IMG/VR virus record: IMGVR_UViG_3300029935_000001
Coordinates: 265,867 to 323,407 of that record
DNA length: 57,541 nucleotides
Strand: one strand, 5' to 3'
Source of the DNA: a virus
Lineage: Duplodnaviria; Heunggongvirae; Uroviricota; Caudoviricetes
Positions 18,533 through 52,175 of this stretch are shown piece by piece (the first letter of the stretch is position 1; every line of letters begins with the position of its first letter). The position numbers were made by a program, and so were the translations under genes. The notes under the pieces are model-generated. The model was not told the origin of the DNA and did no database searches. It saw nothing but the letters and a program-made list of their open reading frames with translations.

Positions 18533-18539
18533 GTAGACT

Positions 18540-19053: not shown

Positions 19054-19055
19054 CT

Positions 19056-19772: not shown

Positions 19773-20485
19773 TGCAAATCAAAGCCAACGTAGAGTACCT
19801 CAGAAAACAATCAATTCACATTTGCATGCCATGTTACGGTGGCCAGCTAACTGAATCTACTTTTATGAGCTTTATTAAGTGGAGTCAAACTGCTCATCAG
19901 CTAGGGTTATCGTGGACAATGGAAACCCTTACTAACGAATCTTTGATTTCGCGAGCCCGAAATACTCTTGCAGCAAAGTTCTTAGCTAACGAAAAAAGCA
20001 CCCATTTGCTGTTTGTTGACGCAGACATTGGTTGGGAGCCGTGGCACTTGATTGCATTGTTAATGCACGATGTTGACTTAGTCGGCGGCTTATACCCGAT
20101 GAAGACTTTACCTATTAAATGGGTAGTTAATGGATTGCCGGGCGCAGTTTCAAATGAAAACCAGCTACTCGAAGTGTCCAAAACTGGCACCGGGTTTATG
20201 TTAATCAAGCGCAATGTATTCGAGCAGATTGATTCGCACCCAGAAGTAGTACCATTTGTTTCCGACATTGGCCTGGACCCGAAATATAATTCTTACATGA
20301 AAACCTACTTTGACACTGCGGTACGAGAAGGTCGGTATTACTCAGAGGATTGGGATTTTTGCGAAAAGTTTCGAGACCAAGGCGGTCAAGTGTTTGTGGA
20401 CAAGCGCGTATTGCTAAAGCACTCGGGCACGTATGTGTTTTCTCAAGACAACAACGACTTGCTCCGAGAACAATTTAACAAGTAA
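19772..20485 (+). CDS. GT-A fold glycosyltransferase
   Basis: ESLISRARN, LLFVDADIGW (DxD), GTGFMLIKR, SEDWDFC. Confidence 0.8.
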   Translation: MQIKANVEYLRKQSIHICMPCYGGQLTESTFMSFIKWSQTAHQLGLSWTMETLTNESLISRARNTLAAKFLANEKSTHLLFVDADIGWEPWHLIALLMHDVDLVGGLYPMKTLPIKWVVNGLPGAVSNENQLLEVSKTGTGFMLIKRNVFEQIDSHPEVVPFVSDIGLDPKYNSYMKTYFDTAVREGRYYSEDWDFCEKFRDQGGQVFVDKRVLLKHSGTYVFSQDNNDLLREQFNK

Positions 20486-20492
20486 CACTCAA

Positions 20493-20515
20493 AGCTGCCT
20501 TAGGGCAGCTAAATA
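20493..20515 (+). promoter_or_regulatory. hairpin overlapping a late promoter
   Basis: AGCTGCC-TTAG-GGCAGCT stem; CTAAATA 20509-20515. Confidence 0.55.
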
Positions 20516-20520
20516 CTGGT

Positions 20521-23500
20521 ATGAACATCTTAGAATTAGATTCCTACCAACTTGTTGATCCCGTTCAGTTTAACGACGAACTAAACCCTCGCTTGTTTGA
20601 TGGCAAAAAGTTAAGACCAGACATCCGCGATCAACTACTTGTAATTGCGCAAGACTTTCAAAGTTTCCTTGGAGTAACTGGTCTTAACCTCAAAGACATT
20701 ACTATTTCAGGGTCAAATGCAGCGTACTCGTATACTTCAGGGTCCGACCTCGACTTACACTTAGTAGTCGACCTACCCGAAGCTGACCGCTCCGAAGTTT
20801 TTCGCGAACTGTTTGATGCCAAGAAGTATCAGTATAATGATCAATACGAGATCACTATAAAAGGCATCCCGGTTGAGCTGTACGTTCAAAACGCCAACGT
20901 CAAACAAGTGTCTCAGGGCATATACTCAGTGCTCAACGACGAGTGGGTGTCTATGCCAAAGCAACAAGCGCCTGCTGCCAATGATATTTCCGTTCAGTCG
21001 CGAGTTGAAACAGCAATGGCTCGCAGCGAATCTGCAATTCGTTCTCGTGACAAAGGCGCTATTGATGCGCTACTCACCAAACTCCACGCAATGAGGCGCG
21101 CCGGGTTAGAACAAGGCGGCGAGTACTCGCCAGAGAACTTAGCGTATAAAACCCTTCGCGCCAACAATGTAATCGATCGACTGTATCGTGCCCGTAATCA
21201 AGCAAAATCAAAAAAGCTTTCATTAGAAAGCAGCAAGACACCTGCAGATTACGGGTGGGTCGGCGACGCGGTTGCTAAAGAGCAATCGCCAACCAACTCA
21301 GCTGCACCCAAAGAAACTACTACTGCAATATCGCCGCGGCAGCTAGCAGCGCAATTTAGAAACCAAATAGCCGCAAAATATCCCGGAGTGACCGCCGATT
21401 TATTTGCTGCAACACACGGCGGTCTTCACCTTAGTAAAATTGAAATCCCCAAAAACCAACGGAGACTAGGCACTGCTACCGAAATCCTTAAAGGAATTGT
21501 TGCACTAGCCGATAGATACCAGCTAGTGGTATCGTTGTCGCCGACCAACGAATTTGGCACTCCTAAGACCGTATTGATTGAATTTTACAAGCGGTTTGGC
21601 TTTGTCTTCAACCGGGGCAAAAACAAAAACTATCGAGTCTCTGAAGCGATGTATCGCGAGCCTCGCACGCTGGCAGAATGTGCGGGGCGAATCACCCCGC
21701 AGAACCAAACAGCGGACGTTGGCCCCAACGAGATTAAAACACAGGCCGCCAAGTTTGGCAACGTGGTCGATCGTGACGGCTATCCTGCGCGCACAATGAC
21801 TGATCGTGTGCCACGAGCGACCGAGGCTCGGTCGCTCGCAACTGCAGCCGACTTGCGCGAACACTGCGTAGCCGGCAACCGATATCTGTCCGAAAACTAC
21901 ACTCAAGAAAAGCTGATATCGTCTACTGCGGCGATATACCCAATAAGAGATTTTCCAGTATACGATGCAAACGGCGTTGTAGACGGCATGGCTAGTGTTG
22001 AGCGACATTTACTGCTTTCGGAAGGAGCAGAATCCGACCTCGACATTAATTTGGTTAACTTTTTAAAGAGCCTTGCGTCGCTATCAAAGCCGGTGATTGG
22101 CAAGAGACATATTACAGTGCTCTTATCAGTAATAGGAAACCAGCTGCACCTTAATAACCCGGTTGAGCTAACCACCTTTGAGCAAAGTGCAATCGAAGAC
22201 GGGGTTAAAGTTGTGCTATTACGGCCTGCAAACGGCCCATCGTTTAAGTTTCCACGATTATACTTACGATCGAAGAGTTTTTGGGCACCGTTCTTGTTTA
22301 GGTCCACTAATAGTTATAATCAATTCAGAACTGCCTTATCGCTAAAAACGTCAATTTCACTTCCAGATATTGCTAGCCTCAGCAAACCCAGCTCGTTTGA
22401 AGTTAATACGCCGTTGCGTGAGGCCGGCGAGGGTGCTGAAGTAAACTCCTCGCGTCTGTCAGTGCCAGTTCAGCGCATGCTTCGCCGGGCGCGCGTTAAA
22501 TTTCCATATGCTAAAACTGACACCGAAGCCTTCTTGAGCTTGATGAACAAGAATGTTAAAGACGTTCGGCAGCAGGTGCAGGATGTTGATCGAGAAAATC
22601 AAGTCCAGCAGCAAGAAATCGACCAGCTCGACAGCGAAACCAACAACCTCGAACACGAAGTTGAAATTGACCTTCGCAGAGAAATCGAGCAGCTCGAGCG
22701 CGATAAACAAGCACTAGCGGCTAAAAATCAACAGCAAGATACTGCTATACAAATCCTAAACACGCACCGGCGCCGCGAAGTTGACACGCTAACTGCTGAA
22801 ATTACCAAGTTATGGAAAGCGTTTAAAAAGCAACCTGTAACAGAAGCCGTGGAAGACCTATACGAAGTTAATATGTCGCCGGGTGTGCTAAGACAGTGGG
22901 CAAACTCTTCAGCAGCACAAGGCATCCGGCTAGGATTTGAGGCGGAGCTGGTCTTTCCGGGATACGGCGCCGGCGGGGATGAATACGAGGATTGGCGCGA
23001 CACTCGAGTTGAGTCCATTGAACAAATTGCTAGCATGTTCCCTGACGACTACCACGACCAGTACAATCTCGATAAAGCACTGCGCGCTCTTGAAGACGAG
23101 TACGATAGTTATGTTACCGAAGTTCGAGTTAGCCAATCTGACGAGTATGCCGCTGAGGCGTGGGTTGAACACCGTTTCCAAAACGATTGGGAAGAGTTCC
23201 GTGACGAGTGGATACGCAACGAAGCGAGTGATGATGGGCTTTCCGAAGAGGAAATCGACGAGCTTCTCGATAACACACATTCGCGCGAGTATCGCAATTA
23301 TAGAATAAGTGCCCGCGAGGAGTTTGACCGCACAGTCCAAGACGAAATAGACTCCGGCGATGGCGAATACGGTCGTTTTGTCCAACAATACCAAGCTAAC
23401 GTGGATGTTGACAGTTTTGAAGATTGGGCATTAAACGAAGGGTACGACACAATAGGTGATTTTATGCGCTACTTCCGATTAGACTATCCAGAAATCCCCG

Positions 23501-24663
23501 AAGGGGCTGGTCAAAGCTATTCGGAAGCAGAAGCCAGTCGCTTAGCGACTGATCTCGGAAAACTAACTGGCGAGGATTACGTTGTTCTAAGCGGATACCA
23601 CACTGCAGACAAAGATGTCAACAAGTGGTACATCGAGAACGACGGGTCTATTGAGGTACCCGATGATATGCAGCATGCGATGCCGGTTGAGATTGTGTCG
23701 CCTGCGTTACCGCTAGACCAAGCATTAGACGCGATGTCTGTGTTCTTCAATGCTACTCGCAGGATGGGCGCAATTTCAAACCGGTCAACCGGCTTTCATA
23801 TGTCCTTGTCGATCGATCAAGGCCCGCTAGCAAATAAGCGACCAAATTACCTAAAGTTAGTTTTGTTTACCGGCGACGAGTATGTGCTCGACCAATTCTC
23901 TCGAGCATCTAACAAATATGCTATGTCGGCAGGTAAGCAGCTTGCCCGGGTAGATCCACTCGACACCGCTAAGGCCGCACAGATTATTGAGATGTTCCGC
24001 AAAGGGTTAACTGACTTAGCAGCTAACGCATTTGTTCAGGCTAATGCTACCCGATACTCAGCAGTTAATATGAAAGATAACTACGTTGAATTCCGAGCAG
24101 CAGGCGGAGCCAATTATTCTAACGACGTTAATAAGCTTATACAAACTGCATATCGTTATGCCTACGCGTATGCCATTGCAGTCGACGAAAACGCTTATCG
24201 CAACGAGTTTGCTAAGAAGCTGTATAAGTTCATCTCAGACTTCCGCTTGCCAGTTCATGCCGACACTGTGCAACTATTTGCTAACTACGCCGTTGATAAG
24301 AACGTAGCAGCACTAAAGCAAGGGTTAGCAATGTATCGCGGACGTCGACACCAACCTGACGTACAAAGACTGGTACGGTTATTGTTTGATACAGCAATCA
24401 ACACATTAACCACTTACACCGATAACTGGCGCTCGCGGGGAACATGGCGGCCTGTTGACGACGAAGTATTACGCCCGATCCTTGCGCAATGGCAAGCCGC
24501 GTCTGCCACAGAAACCTCTGGGGCTGCGCAAACTATTATACGCGATTTAAACTCATTAGTTAACAGCCAAGCACTCGAGCAGCAAACGATGCGAATACTA
24601 CGCGACGAGATCTTCGACGAGTTTGGCGCAGCAGCTCGTGAACAAGGGCTAATGCAACAGTAA
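20521..24663 (+). CDS. 1380-aa multidomain protein: Pol-beta-type nucleotidyltransferase, GNAT, coiled coil, amidoligase-like domain
   Basis: SGSNAAY..SDLDLH; NQRRLGTATEIL..FYKRFGF; GFEAE..ENDGSI..EIVSP..TGFHM..RYSAVN..VEFRAAGG. Confidence 0.75.
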   Translation: MNILELDSYQLVDPVQFNDELNPRLFDGKKLRPDIRDQLLVIAQDFQSFLGVTGLNLKDITISGSNAAYSYTSGSDLDLHLVVDLPEADRSEVFRELFDAKKYQYNDQYEITIKGIPVELYVQNANVKQVSQGIYSVLNDEWVSMPKQQAPAANDISVQSRVETAMARSESAIRSRDKGAIDALLTKLHAMRRAGLEQGGEYSPENLAYKTLRANNVIDRLYRARNQAKSKKLSLESSKTPADYGWVGDAVAKEQSPTNSAAPKETTTAISPRQLAAQFRNQIAAKYPGVTADLFAATHGGLHLSKIEIPKNQRRLGTATEILKGIVALADRYQLVVSLSPTNEFGTPKTVLIEFYKRFGFVFNRGKNKNYRVSEAMYREPRTLAECAGRITPQNQTADVGPNEIKTQAAKFGNVVDRDGYPARTMTDRVPRATEARSLATAADLREHCVAGNRYLSENYTQEKLISSTAAIYPIRDFPVYDANGVVDGMASVERHLLLSEGAESDLDINLVNFLKSLASLSKPVIGKRHITVLLSVIGNQLHLNNPVELTTFEQSAIEDGVKVVLLRPANGPSFKFPRLYLRSKSFWAPFLFRSTNSYNQFRTALSLKTSISLPDIASLSKPSSFEVNTPLREAGEGAEVNSSRLSVPVQRMLRRARVKFPYAKTDTEAFLSLMNKNVKDVRQQVQDVDRENQVQQQEIDQLDSETNNLEHEVEIDLRREIEQLERDKQALAAKNQQQDTAIQILNTHRRREVDTLTAEITKLWKAFKKQPVTEAVEDLYEVNMSPGVLRQWANSSAAQGIRLGFEAELVFPGYGAGGDEYEDWRDTRVESIEQIASMFPDDYHDQYNLDKALRALEDEYDSYVTEVRVSQSDEYAAEAWVEHRFQNDWEEFRDEWIRNEASDDGLSEEEIDELLDNTHSREYRNYRISAREEFDRTVQDEIDSGDGEYGRFVQQYQANVDVDSFEDWALNEGYDTIGDFMRYFRLDYPEIPEGAGQSYSEAEASRLATDLGKLTGEDYVVLSGYHTADKDVNKWYIENDGSIEVPDDMQHAMPVEIVSPALPLDQALDAMSVFFNATRRMGAISNRSTGFHMSLSIDQGPLANKRPNYLKLVLFTGDEYVLDQFSRASNKYAMSAGKQLARVDPLDTAKAAQIIEMFRKGLTDLAANAFVQANATRYSAVNMKDNYVEFRAAGGANYSNDVNKLIQTAYRYAYAYAIAVDENAYRNEFAKKLYKFISDFRLPVHADTVQLFANYAVDKNVAALKQGLAMYRGRRHQPDVQRLVRLLFDTAINTLTTYTDNWRSRGTWRPVDDEVLRPILAQWQAASATETSGAAQTIIRDLNSLVNSQALEQQTMRILRDEIFDEFGAAAREQGLMQQ

Positions 24664-24683
24664 ACCGATAACGCATAGCGTAG

Positions 24684-24690
24684 GTAAATA
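24684..24690 (+). promoter_or_regulatory. late-type promoter heading the tagged-gene array
   Basis: GTAAATA 7 nt before ATG 24698. Confidence 0.6.
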
Positions 24691-24697
24691 CTACACT

Positions 24698-25585
24698 ATG
24701 CGTTATTCTGAATTATTTGAAGCTGTTTCGCAGCAAATATTCCATTACACTAGCATTCACAATGCTTATCGGATCCTGGCTCAACGGCGGTTTAAGTTGT
24801 CACCTGCAGGCGGAACTGACTCTGAGGTTGCCCATCAGCGTGGCAAGCTGTATTTTTTATCCACAGCGAGATCTCCTGCTGCGGACTATACCGTCCAGTC
24901 TGCTTACTACTATGGGGTTGTGTTTAACCTCAACGGTGACTGGCTAAACCAGCGACACAAGGGCGCGGCTGTAGACTACTGGGAGCGTATGTGGGCATCT
25001 GGCCAAGGGCGCACCTCCGAGCAAGAAGATCGCGTTCTCTCTGATAAGCCTTATATTGAATTCCCCAAGAGCACCACTGCGCTGATCAGCGCAGTTCACA
25101 TTTTAGTAAGGCCCGTCGAGCGAGACTTCCAAGACCGGTATGCTGGTACGTTGCGAGGGCTTATTTTTGAGGCCAAGCGACAGGGCATACCGGTCTTTGT
25201 CTACGAGACTGTCAACGACTGGCTAGTTCAAGACACACGAAAAAGCGTGCTGACTACCGAGTATATAAAGGCGCTAACCGGCGAGCGGCCAAAGCCTTAC
25301 GTGTCGCGGTACTCATCGCGCGACGACTTTGAGAAATACCGTGAGATGTATTACAAGCACACCATAGATTCACTCTCCAAAGCAGCTCGCGATGAGGTGT
25401 GGAAGATGCTATCATACAGTGACCGCGGGCGCGTTTTAGATAATGATATCCACAATAGCAAGAAGGATGCCCCAGAAGGGTTGGCCAAGCTGCTCGCTAT
25501 CTTCAAGCGGCTTGGTGTGCGTACCGGCAGCCAGTTTGTGACTGCTATGACAGAAAAATGGAAGGCCATTACTAATGCGCGCTAA
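24698..25585 (+). CDS. putative capsid-internal protein (tag MRYSELFE)
   Basis: CTS-like N-terminus; FHYT..FKLS..YFLSTAR segments could be a divergent ADP-ribosyltransferase-like fold (weak). Confidence 0.65.
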   Translation: MRYSELFEAVSQQIFHYTSIHNAYRILAQRRFKLSPAGGTDSEVAHQRGKLYFLSTARSPAADYTVQSAYYYGVVFNLNGDWLNQRHKGAAVDYWERMWASGQGRTSEQEDRVLSDKPYIEFPKSTTALISAVHILVRPVERDFQDRYAGTLRGLIFEAKRQGIPVFVYETVNDWLVQDTRKSVLTTEYIKALTGERPKPYVSRYSSRDDFEKYREMYYKHTIDSLSKAARDEVWKMLSYSDRGRVLDNDIHNSKKDAPEGLAKLLAIFKRLGVRTGSQFVTAMTEKWKAITNAR

Positions 25586-26723
25586 CGAAATATTAACAGA
25601 ACTATTCACTCAGCCATACCCTTATCGGTTTGGCTCAACTGGCAACTGGGCCGAGTTTAAAGCAGCAGACGGCAGCGACGTCGAAGTTCGTTTTAACAAA
25701 TTTAATGACTACCGCGTCATTAACATTTCATTTGAACGAAATGGGCGCTATTCGCTGACTGGAGCTGGCGATTCATTCAAGATTATGGCCACTGTAGTTA
25801 AGATTGTCGGCGAGTGGATCCAAAGCAAAACCCCACCGATTATTATGTTCACTGCTGACTTAGACGAACCGAGTCGCGTCCAGTTATATGCTCGTTTAAC
25901 ACAGAAATTAATTCAACAGTTTGGCTACACGGATATATCCGGGCACTCAAAGAAGCTGGCCAACAAAGAGTTAGCTGCGGTAGTAGCAGCTATGTATTGG
26001 GATCACAGTGAGGAAAAGCGGGTATTCTTCCTCGCACGCCAAGACATGCTGGCGAAACCTGCTGCGCCAATTTCCGAAGCTCCGTTACCGCCAGACTGGG
26101 ACGAGCAGGCTATGGTGGCACGAAAAGGCACAACCATAAAGAGCAGGCTCCAGTATGCGCTTGAACGGGCACAGCGCTTAGGGGCAGGGTCAAGCCGCGT
26201 GGCAATGATCATCCCATACCAGGGTCGCGAGACGGTGCTCAAGGTCGCCAAGAACCGAAAAGGACTGGCGCAAAACGCTGAGGAAGTTAGCATCCTCAAC
26301 GACGGGTACTTTAGCCAACAAGGCATCTTGATCCCGCTGATCGACTATGCCGAGGGCCCGGAGGTGACCTGGCTACAGACTGAGCTCGCACAGAAGATCC
26401 CCGATAATCGGGCGTTGACTAATCTTCTCGGCGCCGATATTCGCATGGTGCTCGAGTATGTTAAGACGTACAGCGGAAAGTTTCGATACAGCCGAGCCAA
26501 CAATGTCGAGCAGTATCGAGAGATCATCATGAAGGAAGTTCTTCCTGGCCGCGAAGAAGACTTTATCACGCTAGCCGAACAGCTATATGACCTGCAGCAA
26601 GGCAGCGCCTTGGATTTAGATGATTTGTACCAAGAAGCAAACTGGGGCGTTTACCAAGGTCGCCCTGTTATTATTGACGCCGGTTACGCTGGCTCAGTGA
26701 TACCTATGTACCGGATGAGGTAA
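25575..26723 (+). CDS. putative capsid-internal protein: paralog-family domain plus protein-kinase-like domain
   Basis: MRANEILTE; LGAGSSRVA, VLKVAK, QNAEE, DDLYQEANWG, IIDAG. Confidence 0.75.
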   Translation: MRANEILTELFTQPYPYRFGSTGNWAEFKAADGSDVEVRFNKFNDYRVINISFERNGRYSLTGAGDSFKIMATVVKIVGEWIQSKTPPIIMFTADLDEPSRVQLYARLTQKLIQQFGYTDISGHSKKLANKELAAVVAAMYWDHSEEKRVFFLARQDMLAKPAAPISEAPLPPDWDEQAMVARKGTTIKSRLQYALERAQRLGAGSSRVAMIIPYQGRETVLKVAKNRKGLAQNAEEVSILNDGYFSQQGILIPLIDYAEGPEVTWLQTELAQKIPDNRALTNLLGADIRMVLEYVKTYSGKFRYSRANNVEQYREIIMKEVLPGREEDFITLAEQLYDLQQGSALDLDDLYQEANWGVYQGRPVIIDAGYAGSVIPMYRMR

Positions 26724-26728
26724 CTGTA

Positions 26729-27178
26729 ATGTTAGCATACGAAATATTTGAGTCAGACGCCGAGCATGCTGCGGCTTTGGAGAAGACAGGCTTTTGGGGC
26801 AAGCAAGCCGCGGGCTGTATCTTTTTAGCGCGCGACACTGGGCGCTACCTTATTGCGCACCGCTCGCCGTACGTTCAAGAGCCCAACACTTGGGGCACGT
26901 GGGGCGGCGCCATTGACTCGGGCGAGAATCCAGAAACTGCGCTAAAACGTGAGATTGCCGAAGAGGCTGGCTATCACGGTCCTTTGTTACTCAAGCACCT
27001 TTGGACGTTCAAGCATAGCTCAGGGTTTCAGTACCATAACTACTTAGCAGTGGTCGCTACTGAGTTTGAGCCGCAGCTCGACTGGGAAACCCAGGGTTTT
27101 GCTTGGGTAGAGAAGGGCGACTGGCCGCAGCCGATTCACCCAGGATTTGCGCAACTTTTAAAGAACACAAGACTATGA
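26729..27178 (+). CDS. Nudix hydrolase (tag MLAYEIFE)
   Basis: Nudix box GGAIDSGENPETALKREIAEEAG. Confidence 0.9.
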   Translation: MLAYEIFESDAEHAAALEKTGFWGKQAAGCIFLARDTGRYLIAHRSPYVQEPNTWGTWGGAIDSGENPETALKREIAEEAGYHGPLLLKHLWTFKHSSGFQYHNYLAVVATEFEPQLDWETQGFAWVEKGDWPQPIHPGFAQLLKNTRL

Positions 27179-27555
27179 AAATTAACGAAATCGTCAACGA
27201 AGGCATTATTGATTATTTAAAACGGCTGTTGTTTAAGAAAAAACAAAATAACCCGACATACGTTCCTGTGACCCCAGAGCAACGAGACCTAATTAAATCA
27301 GTTTTTGCTGATTCAAACGCACATATTAAACTAACGCCCGATGGCGATTACGTGTTGCCTTATAATGTCCATGCTCGGTTAGGCGCCGCGGCGATCGCGT
27401 TTTACAGTCTAGACGGACAGCTAATGGCATCAGTTGCGCATTACCGCAATGCCAGGTTTAAGCACACTGACCGACCAGTCATTCACTCCGACCACGCAAT
27501 TAATAGTGTTGCTGATTTAGAAAAGCTAAAGGCCCAGTTAAATGAGAGCCACTGA
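27175..27555 (+). CDS. putative capsid-internal protein (tag MKINEIVNE)
   Basis: ATG 27175 overlaps the upstream stop. Confidence 0.65.
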   Translation: MKINEIVNEGIIDYLKRLLFKKKQNNPTYVPVTPEQRDLIKSVFADSNAHIKLTPDGDYVLPYNVHARLGAAAIAFYSLDGQLMASVAHYRNARFKHTDRPVIHSDHAINSVADLEKLKAQLNESH

Positions 27556-28978
27556 ATTTTTAGCCGAGTATAAACGCGACATTACTGCGCAAAACTATGC
27601 TCAATCGCTAGTAGATCGCATTAGTAAAGACCCGTCTATGGCTAGCGAATACCAAGGTCTTGCTGATTCAACATTAGAGCAACAATTAACCATCGTTGAC
27701 GGAATTTTAAAAAACTTTTTTGAAGTAGCTGACCCTACTCAGAATAAGCAATATGTTCGATGGTTAGTTCGCATGTATGCGAACGGACAGATCAAGCGAA
27801 TCGAGGACGTTACAGCATCAGTGGCGCCAGTGTTAGAAAAATATCACCGCCTAAAGAGCAGGAACTTGCTGCCCGCCCACATTCGAGATATCAATCAATT
27901 TAAAACTATTACACAGTTTTATAACGCCGTCGGGAACTTAGAAGAACCTGCTGCTGAGTTAAAAGATAAAGGCACTGCAGAAGAAGTATTTCGCAACAAC
28001 GAAATGCGGATTATTAAGCCTATTGACCAAGCTGCCGCTTGCTACTACGGACAAGGAACTCGCTGGTGCACGGCTGCTACTAACGCGCGCAATATGTTTA
28101 ACAACTATAACAGCGATGGTCCATTGTATATTGTAGTGCCTGCTCAAGCGAAACACCCAGGCGAAAAATATCAACTTCACTTCCAGTCGGAACAGTATAT
28201 GGACGAAAAGGATGATCCAGTGAATTTAAACTGGCTAATCAACGAGCGGTTTCCATCACTGAAAGAAATAGTAGTTCAATTGGCAGGCGATCCAAACTTT
28301 GCGTTCTCTATGCACTTGCTGTCAGATTCAAAGTTTGACAGCATTCTCGCACAGTGCGCCGACTTAGCCGAAATGGTGATCCGGAAAGTCTCCGAAGATC
28401 CAGAAATACTCGACGACCATTACCATGCTCGACGATTACATTCGTTTTTGATGGTCATCGAGGATCGTATTAATTCCAATGTATCACGCAAAGATATTGA
28501 GTGGACGTTTGATGAACACAGTTATTCGCACGAATACTCAAGCACCGTTGCAGATATTCCTATGCTATATTATCGATACCTGCAGGACGGAGAAAAAGAA
28601 TTATATTATCAATACAATTATCCTCGCGACTGGTTTAATGTTGATATTAAGCCTTTTTATACAGCTTTTAAATCATTCAGTGACCGCTTACGCGCAGCAA
28701 TCAACAGCGGCGAGTATGTGGTAGAAAGCTCAATAGCCTGGCGGCGCACGGGCAAGCGTATTAAGCCAAAGTTTCGGTGTAGTAGCGGGCCCCGGGCCGG
28801 TCGTGTGGTCTCGGACCTTGCGCAGTGCAGCGAGCACCCCAACCCAGCTCGAGCTGCTAAGATGAAACTAACCCGGGCACGCACCAAGATACGTGCTGCC
28901 AAACGAGCCAAGAAAACCAAGCGTGTTAATCCATTTTCAAAGCTAATACAAGCGCTGAACAAGGCAAGGAAAAAATGA
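27542..28978 (+). CDS. putative capsid-internal protein, PcfJ-like central domain and basic C-terminal module
   Basis: MRATEFLAE; AACYYGQGTRWCTAA..FNNY...GPLYIV; K/R-rich tail after VVE. Confidence 0.65.
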   Translation: MRATEFLAEYKRDITAQNYAQSLVDRISKDPSMASEYQGLADSTLEQQLTIVDGILKNFFEVADPTQNKQYVRWLVRMYANGQIKRIEDVTASVAPVLEKYHRLKSRNLLPAHIRDINQFKTITQFYNAVGNLEEPAAELKDKGTAEEVFRNNEMRIIKPIDQAAACYYGQGTRWCTAATNARNMFNNYNSDGPLYIVVPAQAKHPGEKYQLHFQSEQYMDEKDDPVNLNWLINERFPSLKEIVVQLAGDPNFAFSMHLLSDSKFDSILAQCADLAEMVIRKVSEDPEILDDHYHARRLHSFLMVIEDRINSNVSRKDIEWTFDEHSYSHEYSSTVADIPMLYYRYLQDGEKELYYQYNYPRDWFNVDIKPFYTAFKSFSDRLRAAINSGEYVVESSIAWRRTGKRIKPKFRCSSGPRAGRVVSDLAQCSEHPNPARAAKMKLTRARTKIRAAKRAKKTKRVNPFSKLIQALNKARKK

Positions 28979-29544
28979 GAGCCGAAGAGTTTTTACTCGA
29001 AATAGGGTACGCCACCGAACTGGGCCCGCTGTCAATTGGCTACTCAGAATTAACGCAGCACGCAGTTGAAGTGGGTAACATAGACCAAAGCCCGGTATTT
29101 TTGTACGAGACTAATAATCAAGAACTATTTTTTTTACAATACGAAGATAAAATTGCTGCATTTGCACTAATAACCGATAATCAATTCCTCCGTGGTATTA
29201 CTTCGATTACTAAAAAGAAAGGCGTAATTACTGCTTTGATCACTTTTATTGTGAGGAAGTTAGGGAGACGACTAATTATTAGCAAAGACGAAGGGCTAAC
29301 CAGCCAAGGATTACAGTGGTTACAAAACATTATTAAAAGCGGTGGCCGCGGCCTGCGGTTTACTACAGCAGGTAACCCCGTTGATCTATCGCAACTGTCG
29401 AAGGAATGGGCGCAATCTATCGAAACCGACGTACCAGGGCCCACCGAGATTATAATCGAAGGCACACTATTGACAGAAGCACAGTTTAACCCCCCGCTGT
29501 TAATGACACTGCGTAAATACATCGGAGACACTGCAAACTTATGA
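28975..29544 (+). CDS. putative capsid-internal protein, possible GNAT-like fold
   Basis: MRAEEFLLE; KKGVITAL..LIISKDEGLTSQGLQW. Confidence 0.6.
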   Translation: MRAEEFLLEIGYATELGPLSIGYSELTQHAVEVGNIDQSPVFLYETNNQELFFLQYEDKIAAFALITDNQFLRGITSITKKKGVITALITFIVRKLGRRLIISKDEGLTSQGLQWLQNIIKSGGRGLRFTTAGNPVDLSQLSKEWAQSIETDVPGPTEIIIEGTLLTEAQFNPPLLMTLRKYIGDTANL

Positions 29545-30023
29545 GAGCAAAAGAATTTTTACCAGAAGTGAACGTAGACAACCGCAGTGGGTGGGGTGCT
29601 ACCCCGCACAATGCTAACGTAGACTATCGTGGCATGGCTGTGCGGATGCGGCCATCGACGTTCTTGAAATTAGCGTTGCCGCTAGCAGCCAATGACCAAG
29701 ACACCACTGAGATAGAGCGGCATATTGCGCAAGGTGGCACCATTGGTGCGCCGTTCTTAGAAATCCGGGCTCCCGACGAGTGGCGCGACTCGGGCGATTA
29801 CAGTGAACCAGCTGTGGTATACGGTCACGACGGGCGGCATCGCATGCTCGCCATTTACCGCAGCGAAGGCGACGAGCCAGTTGAGGTTCATTTATTCCTA
29901 ATGAGCAAGCACTCAGAGTGGCGAAACCGCCACATGACCCCAGAAGTTATGCAGGCACTAAACGCCCAGCTAGTGCCACAAGGCAGCAATGCTGCTATTC
30001 AAGGCCCATTTTTTACATTATGA
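29541..30023 (+). CDS. putative capsid-internal ParB/Srx-like protein
   Basis: MRAKEFLPE; GAPFLEI..VYGHDGRHRMLAI. Confidence 0.7.
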   Translation: MRAKEFLPEVNVDNRSGWGATPHNANVDYRGMAVRMRPSTFLKLALPLAANDQDTTEIERHIAQGGTIGAPFLEIRAPDEWRDSGDYSEPAVVYGHDGRHRMLAIYRSEGDEPVEVHLFLMSKHSEWRNRHMTPEVMQALNAQLVPQGSNAAIQGPFFTL

Positions 30024-30460
30024 GAGCTAACGAAATACTGCTTGAGCTAGGAGACGCTATCTACCCTTATACCCAAGTAGGCAATAAGCTAGTTGCCACA
30101 TTACGGGATGGCCGTGTTTTAGATCTAGCGTTTTGGCGGACCGGTACCGAGCTGGAGATTATCTTCGGGGTCGATGACGAGACCGAAATGACCGGCGGCG
30201 GCGATCAGTTCAAGATTATGGCTACGGTGATTGACATGATCACTCGGCACCTTGGCTCTGCTTCGGAGCAACGAACCCCTAACCGTAAGCCTATCACTAC
30301 CGTCTACTTCACTGCTGCCGCCAACGAACGCTCGAGAGTTAAATACTACACGCGGCGGCTAGTTCCGGTTGTAACCCAGGCGCTACGAGCCGAAGATCCC
30401 GAATGGACGTTTTCTACTGACCTTGTAGACGGACAGCAAGCGTTTGTTTGGCGCCGATAA
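30020..30460 (+). CDS. putative capsid-internal protein, 4-copy paralog family
   Basis: MRANEILLE; TGGGDQFKIMATV..FTA..ERSRVKYY. Confidence 0.7.
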   Translation: MRANEILLELGDAIYPYTQVGNKLVATLRDGRVLDLAFWRTGTELEIIFGVDDETEMTGGGDQFKIMATVIDMITRHLGSASEQRTPNRKPITTVYFTAAANERSRVKYYTRRLVPVVTQALRAEDPEWTFSTDLVDGQQAFVWRR

Positions 30461-30475
30461 TAACAGAGCTAAGAC

Positions 30476-30829
30476 ATGAAAGCAAGAGAAATTTTTACCG
30501 AAGGGTCCACAGATGGCAGACCGGTTAACGTTAATGTTACAGTGACCTTGGACTCGGCACGATTATCACAGAACATCGACAATATTATTGTTCGCAGTGA
30601 TAGCCAGCTTGAGTGGCAACTATATACCGCCGAGAAATGGGCGCCTGGCACGGTCGAAAAATTCAGGCAGTACCAAGCTCAGGTCGACGAACAAATGACC
30701 AAGCAGCTTCACCAGCTCACCCTTGCCTACCACGACACTGCGCACCTAGCTCTTGCTGAAGCACAACAGCAGCTAATCGCCTTTGCCCAACAACTCGTAG
30801 ACCAAAATGGCCAAGATAGCACTGTTTGA
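30476..30829 (+). CDS. putative capsid-internal protein (tag MKAREIFTE)
   Basis: CTS-like N-terminus. Confidence 0.65.
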   Translation: MKAREIFTEGSTDGRPVNVNVTVTLDSARLSQNIDNIIVRSDSQLEWQLYTAEKWAPGTVEKFRQYQAQVDEQMTKQLHQLTLAYHDTAHLALAEAQQQLIAFAQQLVDQNGQDSTV

Positions 30830-31946
30830 AGCGGCCGAGCTGGTCAAGACGCCGGTTGAAGTGCCGCGCGATGTGGTGCGGACGTTAAAGCTGTTCCAGA
30901 CGGTGCTCCGCATTGTGTTTGATCATTACCACAGTGAGTATCGCAGCGACAAGCGCGGGCAACTACGTTCGCTTGAAGAATTTAAGTCATTAAAGGCCAA
31001 GCTAAAGCAGTATCAATCAGTGCCGTTTGTTCGGCCAATATTTGCGCAGATTGAAGCTATTAACCGCGCCTACATTGAAAAATACCAAAGCCAGCGACAG
31101 CTAAAGAAGCAAAACATTTCGGCACCGCTCGCAGCAGTTATGGCCGCTTGGAACACTAAGAACATCTCGGCCATATTACAAGCTGCACGCCCAGTATCAG
31201 CGTTAGTAGCGCAGCACCGGCGAGCCACAGCAGAACCACTGCAAGGCAAGTTCAACCCATACTACATCGAAAACCCGCTATTCTTCATCTCTGCGTCTTT
31301 CTTGGAAATGTTTGAACGTGAGCAAATCGAAGCCGTAATGAATTTAGATCTAAATGAATACCGCTACTCGTATTTGCCGTTGCCTCCCGATAAGCAAGGC
31401 GACTTTCAGTACCTTGGCTACTATATGCTAAAGCTAAGAAATAACCAGGAGCCTGTTTCGATTACCGGCAAGGAAGCAAAAAAATACTTCGACCTGGCGT
31501 TCGACGGATCAAAGTATCGAGAGTTGGTTACTGACATAACCAACTACTTACACAACAATAACAAAGAATTAATTCCAAAGATTGTTGCTGGCATTCAAGA
31601 GTTTCCTGAAATTGCTGAGCTTAACGAAAAAGCCAAGCAAGGCGTTACTCGCGTATATCGAGGTGTAGGTGGCGAGCCAAGCATCACAAAGATACTGCGC
31701 CAAGATCGCGAATCGCGGTATGTAGCAACAAGCACCAGCCACTCAGTGGCTGAGAACTTTGCGCTACAGCGCGGCCATTTAGAAGACCGTAACTTACGGC
31801 GGGTTGAGGACGCTGTGATTATTACTTACACTGTTGGGCCTGCGAGTATTTTATTTGACACTACCATTTTCGGCGGACTGTTCGGCGAAGGCGAAGTGTT
31901 GATTGACGTAAGTAAGGCCGCAGTAGAGGAAACTGAAACATTATGA
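30807..31946 (+). CDS. ADP-ribosyltransferase, R-S-E clade (tag MAKIALFE)
   Basis: RVYRG..YVATSTS..VAENFA..FGEGEVLI. Confidence 0.75.
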   Translation: MAKIALFEAAELVKTPVEVPRDVVRTLKLFQTVLRIVFDHYHSEYRSDKRGQLRSLEEFKSLKAKLKQYQSVPFVRPIFAQIEAINRAYIEKYQSQRQLKKQNISAPLAAVMAAWNTKNISAILQAARPVSALVAQHRRATAEPLQGKFNPYYIENPLFFISASFLEMFEREQIEAVMNLDLNEYRYSYLPLPPDKQGDFQYLGYYMLKLRNNQEPVSITGKEAKKYFDLAFDGSKYRELVTDITNYLHNNNKELIPKIVAGIQEFPEIAELNEKAKQGVTRVYRGVGGEPSITKILRQDRESRYVATSTSHSVAENFALQRGHLEDRNLRRVEDAVIITYTVGPASILFDTTIFGGLFGEGEVLIDVSKAAVEETETL

Positions 31947-32677
31947 GAATTAACGACATCACTGAAGCTGTAAAATCGCGACGTCCTGCCAACCTATTTA
32001 GCATGCCATGGCAGATCTTTACGCTTGATGCCACTACAGTGCTTGATTACCGGCACAGTGCCGGTGAACTCATGGCCTATGTAGAACACCGGGGTAGAAT
32101 AATACTGTGGGTGCCATTTGATTTTTGGAATCGAATTGGGTTTTTTTATATTATGACTCCTGACGAACTGCAGGCTATACAAAAAACACCCAAGACTGAT
32201 GTTACTATACACGACATTCATGCTGCTTATCTTTATATGCTTTGGGACCGAGCAGCTAAAGAAAAAAGGCAGGGCCTTGCTGAAGAGTTTGCTCAATTAA
32301 GCCCGCGCATAAGCAAACAATTTAAATCAGCACCGCCTATATTATACCGCGGTATGGTGTTAGACAATAACTCTATACAGCAATTGCAGTCAGGCGCCAG
32401 TATTAACTTATTAGCAACTACTGTTAGCTCATGGACCACACTCCCAAGCGTAGCCGAGGTGTTTGCGTCGAGAACAAAGGCGACTGGAATTATAATAGAA
32501 AAACAAATGCCAGCGAATCAGATCGTATGCAATTTGTACGCGTTAAATCAAGAGTTTCGCTTACCACTCAACGATCGCTATAGCGACGAACACGAAGTAT
32601 TAGTTGCAGGTAATGGCATTGGGCCGACACTGTCTGCTAATGACCCATCATTGACAATTAAATTACATAAAAAATGA
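31943..32677 (+). CDS. ADP-ribosyltransferase, R-S-E clade (tag MRINDITE)
   Basis: ILYRGM..VSSWTT..VAEVFA..DEHEVLV. Confidence 0.75.
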   Translation: MRINDITEAVKSRRPANLFSMPWQIFTLDATTVLDYRHSAGELMAYVEHRGRIILWVPFDFWNRIGFFYIMTPDELQAIQKTPKTDVTIHDIHAAYLYMLWDRAAKEKRQGLAEEFAQLSPRISKQFKSAPPILYRGMVLDNNSIQQLQSGASINLLATTVSSWTTLPSVAEVFASRTKATGIIIEKQMPANQIVCNLYALNQEFRLPLNDRYSDEHEVLVAGNGIGPTLSANDPSLTIKLHKK

Positions 32678-33330
32678 GAGCATCCGAGTTTTTAAACGAA
32701 AATATAACCGCAACGGACCTGACTCACTTGCGGTATTACTTGATTGACTTGTTTGCGCCATTTGGGCTTGACTTTGAGTTCAGTCGCCACTTCTTGGATC
32801 GAGCCAATGACTTGCGGAACCGAAAGCCTATTACTCCTGGCGAGCTGACGCGGCTGTTCCGCAAGGTGCTCAAACAGCATGGGCGCAGCATTGTGGAGCT
32901 GGCGCCGAACATCGAAGTGGTGCTAAAGGACTTGGCCACCAAGATCAACGTGCCTGTTGCTATCATCCCACCTGAGACTGAGGACGACGCCCGCACAATT
33001 GTGGCCAAGACTGTGATGCGCAAGCAAGATTTCCAAACCTCCAACCCAACATTTGTTATCGAATCGCTTGCAGGAGCCGATCAAAGAGTGTACTATGTAG
33101 CTCTGCATGGCTCGTCCCAGGTTGGTCACGCGATAGTAAACATTAATAAACAGAAAGCCACTGTAGTAGCAAGCAGAGGTATCAATCTCGCTGAATGTAT
33201 TCGCCGAGATCTTTTAAAAAGTGGCATTCAAAATGTTATTATCTCAGAAGACGCACAAAAGAAAGGTAGCAGAGTACCTGGAGTATTTAGAGGCCAAGAA
33301 GAAGGCGTTACAAAAGGCCACGCCCAATGA
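32674..33330 (+). CDS. putative capsid-internal protein, possible RelE/barnase-like RNase domain
   Basis: MRASEFLNE; FEFSRHFLDRAND.RN..VAKTVMRK; fold assignment is inference. Confidence 0.6.
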   Translation: MRASEFLNENITATDLTHLRYYLIDLFAPFGLDFEFSRHFLDRANDLRNRKPITPGELTRLFRKVLKQHGRSIVELAPNIEVVLKDLATKINVPVAIIPPETEDDARTIVAKTVMRKQDFQTSNPTFVIESLAGADQRVYYVALHGSSQVGHAIVNINKQKATVVASRGINLAECIRRDLLKSGIQNVIISEDAQKKGSRVPGVFRGQEEGVTKGHAQ

Positions 33331-33806
33331 GAGCAAAAGAAATCATAAATGAGCTTGGCAATGCCAGTTATCCGTATGTTGAGCCGTTTCTGGGCGAGTA
33401 CAGTGTAGCGCTGCCAACTGGTAAAGAGTTGTATGTAACAATATTGCCTGACACGATGCTCAATAGTGACAACACCGGATTTGCTTACCAAGACGGTCTT
33501 AACATTGAGTTTGCGCTCGACGGCGAATACGCGTTGACCGGCACTAGCGACCAGTTCCGCATTTTGGCAACAGTGATGAAGATTGTGCGGAATCATCTAC
33601 CCCAGTTAGCAGCGCCCGAGGATGTGAGGTTTGTTCGGTTTACAGCCGACAGCGACGAGCCATCCCGTGTGTCGCTGTACCAACGCGCTGCGCCCAAGAT
33701 AGGGCAAATACTACAGGCGATGCCGGTCCAGTGGCAGTTTTCTGAGCGCCCAGGCCGATCAGTATCGTTTTTATGGACAAAGGAAGACAACAATGAGGGC
33801 CGCTGA
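33327..33806 (+). CDS. putative capsid-internal protein, 4-copy paralog family
   Basis: MRAKEIINE; TGTSDQFRILATV..FTADSDEPSRVSLY. Confidence 0.7.
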   Translation: MRAKEIINELGNASYPYVEPFLGEYSVALPTGKELYVTILPDTMLNSDNTGFAYQDGLNIEFALDGEYALTGTSDQFRILATVMKIVRNHLPQLAAPEDVRFVRFTADSDEPSRVSLYQRAAPKIGQILQAMPVQWQFSERPGRSVSFLWTKEDNNEGR

Positions 33807-34284
33807 ACTACTGCTTGAGTTAGCCGACTCGCACTATGAAATACTAATGCAGAATACCGATCATTATGGGCTGCATTACTTTTTTGAAACCCGGACCGGC
33901 GACGAATATAAGGTGCAGATTTTATGGGATGGTCCGCCAGGACAAGTGTCTGTTCAGTTTGCGTTACGGCAAGGCGCTGAGTGGGCCGACCATGTCACTG
34001 GCGGCGCCGGTACCGAATCACTGCGCGTTTTCTCTACGGTGATTCATTGTGTCAAGGATGCGATTGCCCGTGAGCCCGAGATTGATACCATTGCCTTTGA
34101 CGCGACGTTTGCTGAGCCATCGCGAGTTGCGCTGTACCGGCGGTTTGCTGCCAACGCCAGCCGATACCTGCCTGGATGGCGTTATGTTGGCGAAAAAGGG
34201 CGTGAGTGGTCAGGTGGTCGCAGCGGGAATAACTACGTTATAACGCGAAAGCCAAAAACTATCCTCAGCTCGCCAAAACTGTAG
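33793..34284 (+). CDS. putative capsid-internal protein, 4-copy paralog family
   Basis: MRAAELLLE; TGGAGTESLRVFSTV..FDA..EPSRVALYRR. Confidence 0.7.
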   Translation: MRAAELLLELADSHYEILMQNTDHYGLHYFFETRTGDEYKVQILWDGPPGQVSVQFALRQGAEWADHVTGGAGTESLRVFSTVIHCVKDAIAREPEIDTIAFDATFAEPSRVALYRRFAANASRYLPGWRYVGEKGREWSGGRSGNNYVITRKPKTILSSPKL

Positions 34285-34329
34285 ACTACTTTTAATAACG
34301 ATGCTATTAAGACTAAGCAGTTTGTTAAA

Positions 34330-34599
34330 GTGTGTTTTACTGTTTCAACACAGGTAGAAGGGTTTGAACCTCGATACCGAGTGTATGTTAACGACGAGCT
34401 TTTTACTGAGCGCACTTACTATGCCGGGCCGCTGGAATGCTACGAAGAAATCTTACAGGTATTGGCGCCGCCTGGCTCCTACACTGTTCGACTCGAGCCG
34501 TTAGATCAGCAGGCTTATACAGTAGGGCCTTTGCGTGTAATTTACGGGCCCGCAGCGGCAACAGAAAAAAATAAATTCCGCATTTTAGGTCATAAGTAA
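34330..34599 (+). CDS. hypothetical protein
   Basis: 89-aa ORF, start uncertain. Confidence 0.55.
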   Translation: MCFTVSTQVEGFEPRYRVYVNDELFTERTYYAGPLECYEEILQVLAPPGSYTVRLEPLDQQAYTVGPLRVIYGPAAATEKNKFRILGHK

Positions 34600-34610
34600 C
34601 AGTAACAAAG

Positions 34611-34712
34611 AATTCACCTAGGACCGTTAAGTTGCGGTGGATGCGGCGCGCCTCGGCCGGTAGTAAAGGATTCGCTACCCTTTTGCTACAAATAAGGGCT
34701 TCGCCTTTTTAC
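34611..34712 (+). ncRNA. candidate small structured RNA or regulatory leader
   Basis: Follows CATAAGTA; ACCG/CGGT stem; GTAGTAAAGG/CCTTTTGCTAC stem; terminator-like AAGGGC-TTC-GCCTTTTT. Confidence 0.35.
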
Positions 34713-34789
34713 CCCTTATCATTTACCAAACCCTATTGCAGTATAGTCATCAACTATGTATAGTTGTGGTTATACCAGGAGAAATTTAT

Positions 34790-34840
34790 ATGTCTAATTC
34801 CCGTATGTTTAGCGCCGAAGAAAAGGCGAAACATACCTAA
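34790..34840 (+). pseudogene. stranded 5' fragment of the 35621 gene
   Basis: MSNSRMFSAEEKAK(HT*) versus MANSRMFSAEERAK; retains AGGAG RBS. Confidence 0.85.
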
Positions 34841-34844
34841 TTAG

Positions 34845-34870
34845 TATAAATATTAGCGGAGGCGCTAATG
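34845..34870 (+). promoter_or_regulatory. late promoter plus RBS-sequestering hairpin
   Basis: TATAAATA; ATTAGCG-GAGG-CGCTAAT covers the SD and start codon. Confidence 0.8.
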
Positions 34871-35617
34871 AATACTTTTTATGTTTACGTACACAAACGG
34901 TTAAGCGATGGCAACATCTTTTATGTTGGAAAGGGCAAAGGAAACCGCGCATTTGACCGGTCAGGTAGAAACAACCTATGGCAAAAGATTGTAGACAAGC
35001 ACGGCCTAGTTGTAGAAATAATCCATGCTAATCTTCTCGAACAAACTGCGTGGGACATAGAAACAAGACTCATTGAGCAGTACGGCCGGTTGTGCGACAA
35101 CACTGGAGTATTAGCAAACCTGTCAACTGGCGGCGAGGGCGCCGCAGGAGTCACACATTCGCCAGAAACAAAACAAAAGTGGTCTGTTGCTAAAAAGGGC
35201 AAAAAACGAAATTTAACTGACGAGCAACGAGAAGCAATATCTAACTGGCTACGTGCTCGCACGGTGACTGCCGAGACAAGACAAAAAATGTCTGCTGCGC
35301 GCAAGGCCAGGAAAAGCGAACCTAAAGTAACCGATGAGACTCGCAAAAAATTGAGCGAGATGCGGAAGGGGCGACCTTCGCCAACAAAAGGAATGACCTT
35401 ATCCGCAGAGGCTAGACAAAATATGTCTGCTGCTGCTACAATACGAGGGCAAGACCCAGAGATCCGGGCGAGGATATCAAATAGCATGAAGGGTCGGCCG
35501 AAGTCCGAAGAAACAAAACTAAAAATGAAAGAGGCAGCAGCAAGAAGAGCTGCTGACCCCGAGTATAGAAAAAAATGCTCTGAATCAGCAAAAAACCGTA
35601 AATCAAAAAAGGATTAG
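34868..35617 (+). mobile_element. free-standing GIY-YIG homing endonuclease with NUMOD3-like repeats
   Basis: FYVYVH..FYVGKG..RA; repeated HSPETKQKWS / TAETRQKMS / TDETRKKLS / SEETKLKM. Confidence 0.85.
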
Positions 35618-35620
35618 TAA

Positions 35621-35884
35621 ATGGCAAATTCAAGAATGTTCTCGGCAGAGGAACGCGCGAAATTAACACAAATCGTCAACGAAGCCTTGTCTATTATGAT
35701 GGAAGTCGAAACGCTCAACGGCGGTCTTTCTGACACCATCAAAGCAGTGGCCGAAGAGATGGATATCAAGCCTGCCTTGCTTCGAAAGGCTATTAAAATT
35801 GCCCACAAGGCTACATTTACCCAAACACAAGAAGACAACGAGCTTGTTGAGCAAATTCTCGTTACTGTTGGCAAGACGCTTTAA
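35621..35884 (+). CDS. DsbA/GapR-like dsDNA-binding protein
   Basis: 87-aa helical protein, DTIKAVAEEMDIKPALLRKAIK; sits before the polymerase; family assignment from pattern only. Confidence 0.55.
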   Translation: MANSRMFSAEERAKLTQIVNEALSIMMEVETLNGGLSDTIKAVAEEMDIKPALLRKAIKIAHKATFTQTQEDNELVEQILVTVGKTL

Positions 35885-35887
35885 CCT

Positions 35888-52161: not shown

Positions 52162-52175
52162 TATAAATAAGTATT

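Follow-up and report, generated by a model that had tools for sequence, protein, structure and literature searches.

T-even phages load diverse proteins into the head by means of a short, cleavable N-terminal leader, and the loci that encode these proteins are variable (PMC3012670, PMC9026906, PMC12373910). In T4, the prohead protease gp21 cleaves behind an L/I-x-E motif. Encapsidation requires no more than the first 10 residues of IPIII, and within this capsid targeting sequence (CTS) positions 4 and 7 are important for targeting, positions 8 and 10 for processing (PMC9026906). The T4 record gives these leaders as MKTYQEFIAE/A for IPII and IPIII (a slash marks the cut, which is a predicted one for all non-T4 proteins below), MKTFKEF... 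for IPI and MELITELFDE for Alt. Here we analyze a 57,541-nucleotide stretch of DNA (the window), which forms the final 57.5 kb of an IMG/VR virus record (IMGVR_UViG_3300029935_000001; 323,407 bp, direct terminal repeats), and in which 14 consecutive genes (g1 to g14) start with a related peptide of 8-9 residues, hereafter the tag. We consider it probable that the tag is the T4-type CTS of this phage's clade, and that the products of the array are packaged, cleaved and injected as mostly enzymatic, host-directed cargo.

The array resembles the T-even ip loci in that a leader starting at Met1 and ending in a gp21-type L/I-x-E site, with an E-F-[IL]-x-E core, is found on unrelated proteins. A gp21-family protease is encoded in the genome, and locus content varies between relatives, as in the T-even phages (PMC3012670, PMC12373910). 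The F, [IL] and E of the tag align with F7, I8 and E10 of the T4 CTS, while Y4 has no counterpart, and nine residues are too few for homology statistics. The array leader is 9 (or 8) residues long instead of 10, and R-A replaces K-T-Y. T4 cuts between Glu and Ala (PMC9026906), and across the tagged cargo clusters described below a small residue likewise mostly follows the predicted cut. The T-even loci hold one or two genes each, and their products are GmrSD restriction inhibitors of approximately 8-21 kDa, whereas here 14-17 genes form an operon-like array and encode proteins of 12-54 kDa, mostly enzymes or multi-domain fusions, in a phage from a distant jumbo clade. The first-pass annotation of this DNA had proposed an arsenal much larger than that of T4, and the counts agree with it: 14 genes here and 17 in a relative, as compared to three Ips plus Alt.

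Other phages also carry proteins in the head. In phiKZ-like phages and SPN3US, a diverged homologue of gp21 cleaves many head-internal proteins behind a Glu, and these proteins are delivered into the host (PMC9026906, PMC5694885, PMC7411985). These phages, however, belong to a different lineage, their sites are of the S/A-x-E type within longer, multi-site propeptides, and a short decapeptide shared by their N-termini has not been described. The Dar internal proteins of P1 are variable effector and anti-restriction modules, held within the capsid and delivered at infection (PMC9024508, PMC12810830), which is the arrangement that we propose here. Their loading, however, proceeds through partner proteins (DarA/Hdf) and not by way of a cleavable nine-residue leader. 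MuF/gp7-type polymorphic toxins of temperate phages are capsid-carried modules as well, and are loaded by a folded head-protein domain (MuF). In full-text literature searches, no account of comparable leader arrays was retrieved for jumbo phages related to T4. The principle of leader-loaded head cargo is already published for T-even phages (PMC3012670, PMC9026906, PMC12373910); new aspects here are this variant of the tag, the clade that carries it, an array of this size, and an enzymatic, multi-domain, shuffled cargo with a recurring kinase-like fusion module.

A common N-terminal peptide in 14 consecutive genes

The array occupies positions 24698-34284 of the window, on the plus strand, and its 14 open reading frames (ORFs) carry exactly the N-termini that had been listed in the first-pass annotation. 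All 14 begin with M-R-A-x-E-F-[IL]-x-E or a close variant. For two genes, the start codon (at 27175 and at 30020) is an ATG inside a longer TTG/GTG ORF; both were accepted as sensible because each overlaps the preceding stop codon as ATGA. Gene junctions range from -23 to +15 nucleotides across the array, which points to one tight transcription unit and leaves no space for repeated intergenic cassettes.

A loose regular expression for the tag, applied genome-wide to every frame that starts with ATG and has 59 codons or more, gave 22 matches in 323 kb, of which 14 were the array genes. With a degenerate DNA pattern, for which chance would yield approximately 0.3 matches per genome, 11 sites were found, 10 of them within the array, as compared to a single one for the reversed control. 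In addition, an [LI]-x-E motif ending at residues 5-10 is present in 13 of the 14 array genes and in only 39 of the 404 other gene calls (9.7%; Fisher P = 5e-12). Taken together, these three results indicate that the tag array is real and far beyond chance. Relative to the final Glu of the tag, 12 of the 14 tags have L or I at P3 together with E at P1. The ORF that follows the array (34330-34599) has no tag. The sole clear tagged gene outside the array encodes a 147-residue protein starting with MKINEIINE, and is followed by a gene for 631 residues that starts with MKLLE (genome positions 183212-185547).

A shared N-terminus could also be a by-product of duplication, of recombination at gene starts or of translational coupling, with no function for the peptide itself. 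The first-pass annotation had described the downstream domains as unrelated; all-against-all BLASTP with the tags removed bore this out for ten cargoes, and identified the N-terminal domain of g2, g8, g13 and g14 as paralogues, so that four of the 14 genes do share ancestry. Genes in the array also overlap or abut, which makes re-initiation likely. Nevertheless, ten unrelated cargoes remain, the junctions hold no intergenic cassette, and in four cargo families the peptide persists despite deep divergence and stays in place when domains are shuffled. Furthermore, synonymous codons vary between the array tags while the residues stay alike, indicating selection on the peptide. An origin as a by-product was already disfavoured and appears very improbable.

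The tag is conserved and almost confined to N-termini

The tag was then followed through homologues of the array proteins and through loci fetched from other contigs. The consensus of 225 tags is M-R(94%)-A(80%)-x-E(91%)-F(88%)-[I 48%/L 40%]-x-E. In an alignment of 31 homologues of g7, M1, R2, E5 and E9 each keep a conservation of at least 90% even where overall identity falls to 40%, and are in this respect comparable to the putative active-site motif of this family. The strict tag is present in 80 of 88 homologues of g7, 105 of 120 of the g2 C-terminal domain and 93 of 120 of g5, and several of the apparently untagged homologues are mis-called starts.

Position is equally restricted. Among 450 homologues selected by cargo similarity, the tag starts at residue 2 in 198 cases and is internal in 5; in loci selected by their DNA polymerase, and not by the tag, the corresponding numbers are 39 at the N-terminus and 4 internal. 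The cargo behind it changes freely: the kinase-like domain found in g2 directly follows the tag in 47 proteins, and in 55 others the two are separated by GNAT, Nudix, ADPrib_exo_Tox plus Nudix, HD or DUF6934 domains. The g7 domain, too, occurs inside larger tagged proteins elsewhere. These fusions are reminiscent of the polyvalent proteins of phages and conjugative elements (Iyer et al. 2017, as cited in PMC7824862), which combine ADP-ribosyltransferase (ART), GNAT and other enzymatic domains and are predicted to be co-injected with the DNA in order to subvert the host. Fusions of the tag with GNAT, Nudix, ART or HD domains and a kinase, as well as a multi-enzyme protein of 1380 residues encoded next to the array, are similarly shuffled; polyvalent proteins, however, are single giant polypeptides without a defined short tag, whereas the modules of the array are mostly separate genes with their own leaders.

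The 296 tagged proteins in the fetched loci fall into 101 clusters of N-terminal domains, and 50 of these have S, A, G or N directly behind the predicted cut. A role of the residue at this position as an N-degron (Leu/Tyr) timer after cleavage was considered and rejected, since L, F, Y or W occupies P1' in only 11 of the 101 cargo clusters; counts biased by family had made it look plausible.

The prohead protease and the head module

By sequence, the genome is that of an uncultured jumbo phage of the T4 superfamily. The DNA polymerase, of family B, shows 44-48% identity to the enzymes of Sinorhizobium phage Phosso and Agrobacterium phage Atu_ph07, and approximately 40% to those of Rak2-like jumbo phages. 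The genome encodes a prohead protease of the gp21 family (positions 100767-101399 of the genome; Peptidase_S77, 84 bits as compared to a cut-off of 27), within a head module that has the T4 order: portal, small core protein, acidic core protein, protease, scaffold and major capsid protein. All five head-module proteins of this phage carry an early [LI]-x-E motif within the first 10 residues. In the capsid protein such sites occur only at residues 7, 19 and 43, the remaining approximately 350 residues being devoid of them, and the scaffold protein contains 22. These patterns fit a protease that shares the L/I-x-E specificity of gp21 (PMC9026906).

Peptidase_S77 was also found in all five large tag-bearing contigs tested. 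This bears on a second alternative, that the leader is read by other machinery, such as a Clp-type chaperone/protease or a localisation system, and would serve to time the breakdown of these proteins or to position them within the cell, and not to bring them to the capsid. The Met-basic-hydrophobic start of the tag bears a loose likeness to some N-terminal ClpX recognition motifs. The conserved E-F-[IL]-x-E, however, ends exactly at a gp21 site and matches the T4 CTS, the protease accompanies the tag in each of those five contigs, and recognition as a ClpS N-degron failed on the P1' counts given above. We thus regard recognition by such a system as unlikely.

If the tag indeed functions as a CTS, the array would be transcribed as a single unit, probably late, and the leader would recruit each product to the scaffolding core of the prohead, where the gp21-type protease would cut it off after the final Glu. 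The mature proteins would remain in the head, enter the next host cell with the DNA and act on host targets before phage gene expression. Packaging, cleavage, ejection and timing are steps that we infer by analogy with T4. The cargo set would comprise a kinase-like domain, at least one R-S-ExE ART, a Nudix hydrolase, four DUF6934-like copies and several proteins without assigned function. Its folds fit host-directed enzymes, and the nature of the three identified domains suggests a host-directed or anti-defence role.

Cargo domains of the array

The first-pass annotation had named ARTs, a kinase, Nudix, ParB-like and PcfJ-like domains among the cargo. The Nudix domain (g3), the kinase-like domain (g2) and the ART of g10 were recovered in our analysis and a second ART (g11) weakly so, whereas the ParB-like and PcfJ-like assignments were not confirmed. 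Scans of the array proteins against NCBIfam and PADLOC gave nothing useful, and single-sequence PDB searches with g2, g7, g10 and g11, as well as a profile search with g10, returned nothing meaningful.

Gene g2 (25575..26723; 382 residues, tag MRANEILTE/L) combines a DUF6934-like N-terminal domain, recognized by a weak match (3.4e-5), with a C-terminal domain spanning approximately residues 150-382. The model of the latter (predicted local distance difference test (pLDDT) 86.3) has 201 PDB matches at E<=1e-3, all of them kinases or phosphotransferases, the best at 1e-5. Residues K74, E88, D201, N207 and D219 of the domain are invariant among 48 sequences and correspond to the catalytic Lys, the helix-C Glu, the D-x4-N loop and the DFG-like Asp. 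Both the model and these residues support a protein-kinase-like fold. Gene g3 (26729..27178; 149 residues, tag MLAYEIFE/S) matches Pfam NUDIX with 56.5 bits (cut-off 21.1; E 3.7e-15), which confirms its sequence assignment as a Nudix hydrolase; the same domain heads a 406-residue tagged protein elsewhere.

Gene g10 (30807..31946; 379 residues, tag MAKIALFE/A) encodes a helical N-terminal region followed by a putative ART domain at approximately residues 280-379. In its AlphaFold2 (AF2) model (pLDDT 94.7), the first ~10 residues are disordered. Structural matches to residues 280-379 are almost exclusively ART folds, the best being Tpt1/KptA (Z 7.9, root-mean-square deviation 3.0, 81 aligned residues), followed by the Rhs toxins TreTu/TreX (Z 7.3-7.4) and by cholera, LT and pertussis toxins (Z approximately 6). 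Within the family (54 homologues), R285 and E361 are invariant and A307, T308 and E363 are at least 90% conserved; R285-G286 and A307-T308, in the S-T-S region, are among the conserved positions of the alignment. The Pfam ART match is below the cut-off (E 0.078), and no member of the family alignment matches an ART model. As the Z score is below 8, the case for an ART rests on the uniformity of the match list and on the motifs, and by fold and motif an R-S-ExE type ART is supported for g10.

This is also the cargo that most invites comparison with T4 Alt, an enzyme that is carried in the head, has a short gp21-processed N-terminal leader and is delivered with the DNA (PMC9026906). Both would be R-S-ExE ARTs with a helical N-terminal region and a C-terminal catalytic domain. 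g10 is, however, approximately half the size of Alt, its nearest folds are minimal ARTs (Tpt1/KptA and the Rhs toxins TreX/TreTu), and sequence homology between the g10 family and Alt was not detectable (hhalign probability 0.3%). Gene g11 (31943..32677; 244 residues, tag MRINDITE/A) is a possible divergent second ART; its hhalign alignment with the g10 family covers the R and S-T-S region (E 5e-4, but a probability of 31%) and weakly suggests such a relationship, and family and PDB searches gave no other match.

The DUF6934-like domain of g2 recurs in three further genes. These are g8 (30020..30460; 146 residues, tag MRANEILLE/L), whose ATG overlaps the stop codon of g7 and whose product matches g13 at 3e-15 and the g2 N-terminal domain at 1.5e-9 by BLASTP, g13 itself (33327..33806; 159 residues, tag MRAKEIINE/L), and g14 (33793..34284; 163 residues, tag MRAAELLLE/L), which is the last gene of the array.

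Gene g5 (27542..28978; 478 residues, tag MRATEFLAE/Y) belongs to a large family, with at least 476 homologues. Among the 120 homologues listed, 119 have no Pfam domain and one has PF13475; an early hydrophobic-x-E is present in 115, and a homologue without a tag exists on unrelated viral contigs. PcfJ likeness had been proposed for this protein, but no PF14284 match was found at E<=5; an Atlas lead (0.81) points to a cluster of which 26% of the members carry PcfJ. Gene g7 (29541..30023; 160 residues, tag MRAKEFLPE/V) encodes a conserved family with an invariant GH[DE]GR[HN]RM motif. This motif is its only likeness to ParB/Srx-like nucleases, and there was no Pfam match for the 31 members and no PDB match in single-sequence or profile searches.

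The function of the g1 cargo (24698..25585; 295 residues, tag MRYSELFE/A) is unassigned: matches in Pfam, PHROG, NCBIfam and PADLOC were absent, and the Atlas offered no more than leads (DUF2971, AbiGi and DarT/PARP). Its domain heads tagged proteins of 422 and 695 residues in other phages. Likewise, g4 (27175..27555; 126 residues, tag MKINEIVNE/G), the ATG of which overlaps the stop codon of g3 by 4 nucleotides, has no Pfam, PHROG, NCBIfam or PADLOC family match. Gene g6 (28975..29544; 189 residues, tag MRAEEFLLE/I) gave no family match, and its domain was found inside a 589-residue tagged protein elsewhere. Gene g9 (30476..30829; 117 residues, tag MKAREIFTE/G) encodes an acidic protein for which all family matches are sub-threshold.

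In g12 (32674..33330; 218 residues, tag MRASEFLNE/N), residues 3-126, which include the tag region, match the C-terminal end of phrog_23027 (positions 480-599 of 602; 5.6e-16), and there is a sub-threshold MuF_C match (E 0.19). The domain may thus be the C-terminal part of a larger protein in other phages, and the tag-like stretch in such proteins is perhaps an internal cleavage site.

Turnover and distribution of tagged genes

In a close relative, whose orthologs are 76-91% identical, the same locus is flanked by the giant amidoligase gene and the gene for the DNA polymerase, and holds 17 tagged genes. A GNAT gene, two more DUF6934-like copies (g13 being duplicated again) and a new gene for 223 residues have been gained, g6 is absent, and g4 and g11 are replaced, g4 by a different tagged gene, so that overall there are at least five gains, losses or replacements. 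The ortholog of g12 is 63% identical. Such fast turnover matches the behaviour of the T-even ip loci (PMC3012670, PMC12373910).

An exact DNA pattern for MRAxEFxxE was found in at least 120 IMG/VR contigs, and arrays of two to five tagged genes are common in the fetched stretches (<=15 kb). Four related records, 199-349 kb in length and in two cases 97% complete, contain three to nine pattern matches each (control 0-1), which are scattered and do not form a single block. Among cultured phages, megablast with the array gave no match; the candidate tagged genes of Atu_ph07 and Phosso are isolated hypothetical genes. Xanthomonas phage XacN1 ORF170 (L218:8974-9621) carries the kinase-like domain behind a 12-residue leader, MKQVRLSQFLSE/APLPDDW, which ends in F-L-S-E.

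The commonest tagged families on other contigs (loci L014, L095, L097, L007, L034, L036 and others) are small proteins that resemble classical internal proteins. One has approximately 125 residues and is often encoded in tandem pairs, and another has approximately 60 residues and a basic C-terminus. These two commonest small families are absent from the genome of the array phage.

Proteins of this kind, of ~60-125 residues, are what would be expected if the leader were a packaging and processing signal on proteins that act inside the head or in assembly, such as core components, proteins associated with the DNA or enzymes that modify or process it once packaged, and not on host effectors. The similar early [LI]-x-E leaders of the head-module proteins would fit such a role, as would the fact that most of the cargo has no assigned function. 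On the other hand, kinase-like, ART and Nudix domains, and GNAT and HD in the relatives, have no obvious use in assembly; turnover between close relatives suits accessory genes of an arms race better than assembly factors, and the T4 precedents, Alt and Ip1-3, are all host-directed (PMC12373910, PMC9026906). A role confined to the head therefore seems improbable to us, and host-directed cargo is the reading that we retain.

A broader view, which we put forward only tentatively, is that the predictable nine-residue tag, sufficient on its own for the loading of arbitrary proteins, defines a fast-evolving 'injectome' of this uncultured T4-related jumbo clade, with interchangeable head-loaded enzymes in hundreds of phages. 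Its architecture would often consist of the tag, a variable head domain (GNAT, Nudix, ART, HD or DUF6934) and the conserved kinase-like module, and the delivery repertoire would be as diverse as that of bacterial secretion-system effectors. Should the tag function as it does in T4, the injected proteins could be read directly from the genome for a large group of uncultured giant phages. Head-delivered cargo would then exceed a few small restriction inhibitors plus Alt, and could amount to a double-digit arsenal of enzymes (kinase, ADP-ribosyltransferase, Nudix, acetyltransferase) that is exchanged rapidly and acts before transcription of the phage. The tagged families, most of them unannotated, would be a candidate list of enzymes for host takeover and counter-defence, and a short alternative CTS could widen the T4-style tools for protein packaging.

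A conserved element upstream of the array

The 34-nucleotide spacer that precedes g1 (24664..24697, plus strand) contains GGTAAATA (24683-24690), a candidate regulatory element. The GTAAATA that had been annotated as a late-type promoter is indeed located at 24684-24690, 7 nucleotides before the ATG of g1. In two related contigs the spacer is 100% identical, and the flanking coding DNA differs at approximately 12% of positions. Across the genome, TAAATA boxes lie 3-8 nucleotides before the ATG of 17 genes (~0.9 expected), at 9-14 nucleotides before none and at 15-26 nucleotides before 35; those of structural genes are roughly 20-35 nucleotides upstream. The spacer with GGTAAATA is thus a conserved element of an enriched class of boxes and possibly a T4-type late promoter, and for the promoter role claimed earlier the support is moderate.

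Boxes of the 3-8 nucleotide class leave no room for a Shine-Dalgarno sequence, and may represent T4-type late promoters with leaderless transcripts; the class includes a giant gene for 4358 residues and GIY-YIG-like genes. Within the window, TAAATA boxes were located at 3154-3161, 20509-20515, 24684-24690 and 52162-52169. In a scan of positions 18000-36500, sigma-70 promoter-like sites were at the shuffled expectation and terminator-like sites were in slight excess, with nothing outstanding within the array.

Strength of the proposed packaging function

The earlier proposal of a T4-like CTS on a modular set of enzymes is upheld by the likeness to the T4 leaders, the presence of a gp21-family protease, the conservation of the tag, its restriction to the N-terminus and its independence of the cargo. 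Of the five domain classes named in that proposal, two were not confirmed.

Several observations count against packaging and injection of the array products. The array is surrounded by replication and DNA-modification genes and not by head genes, although in the T4 record the ip genes are likewise placed away from the head genes, among genes for replication and DNA modification. Two tags deviate at P3, where g4 has V and g9 has F. The spacing of 7 nucleotides between box and ATG would imply a leaderless or near-leaderless mRNA for g1, and across the clade the TAAATA box is not enriched before tagged genes (15.5%, as compared to 18.0% for other genes). Within the mature cargo, internal [LI]-x-E sites are not significantly depleted, with an observed/expected ratio of 0.92 versus 1.25 genome-wide (P = 0.07). 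The nine-residue pattern is absent from T4, the CTS of which has 10 residues, and shows no clear enrichment in the cultured relatives Phosso, Atu_ph07, CBB or GAP32. Literature searches found no virion proteome of a phage carrying the tag, and ORF170 is not mentioned in the gel-band proteome of XacN1. Finally, leaders in the g10 family are mostly different and shorter, or absent.

The leaders of g10 homologues (P0090-P0197) include MILTE/S, MKTFKQFLKE/S and MITFKQFLKE/D, and approximately 20 of the 54 aligned sequences have none. This mixture suggests that packaged and non-packaged versions coexist, as is the case for T4 Alt versus ModA/ModB.

Genes flanking the array

The gene immediately upstream (20521..24663, plus strand), whose end lies 34 nucleotides before g1, encodes the multi-enzyme protein of 1380 residues mentioned above, with an NTase-like N-terminus and an Amidoligase_2 domain (5.8e-11). 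It starts with MNILE/L, an early I-L-E, and its ortholog in the relative with MNITE/L, an early I-T-E. With low confidence, these starts mark it as a possible further head-targeted, multi-enzyme ('polyvalent') member of the array.

Downstream, a NUMOD3 homing-endonuclease-like gene (34845-35617) is located between the array and the DNA polymerase gene, and is preceded by a perfect TATAAATA at 34845. A hairpin at 34851-34870 spans the ribosome-binding site and the start codon of this gene, as in the T4 seg and intron endonuclease genes.

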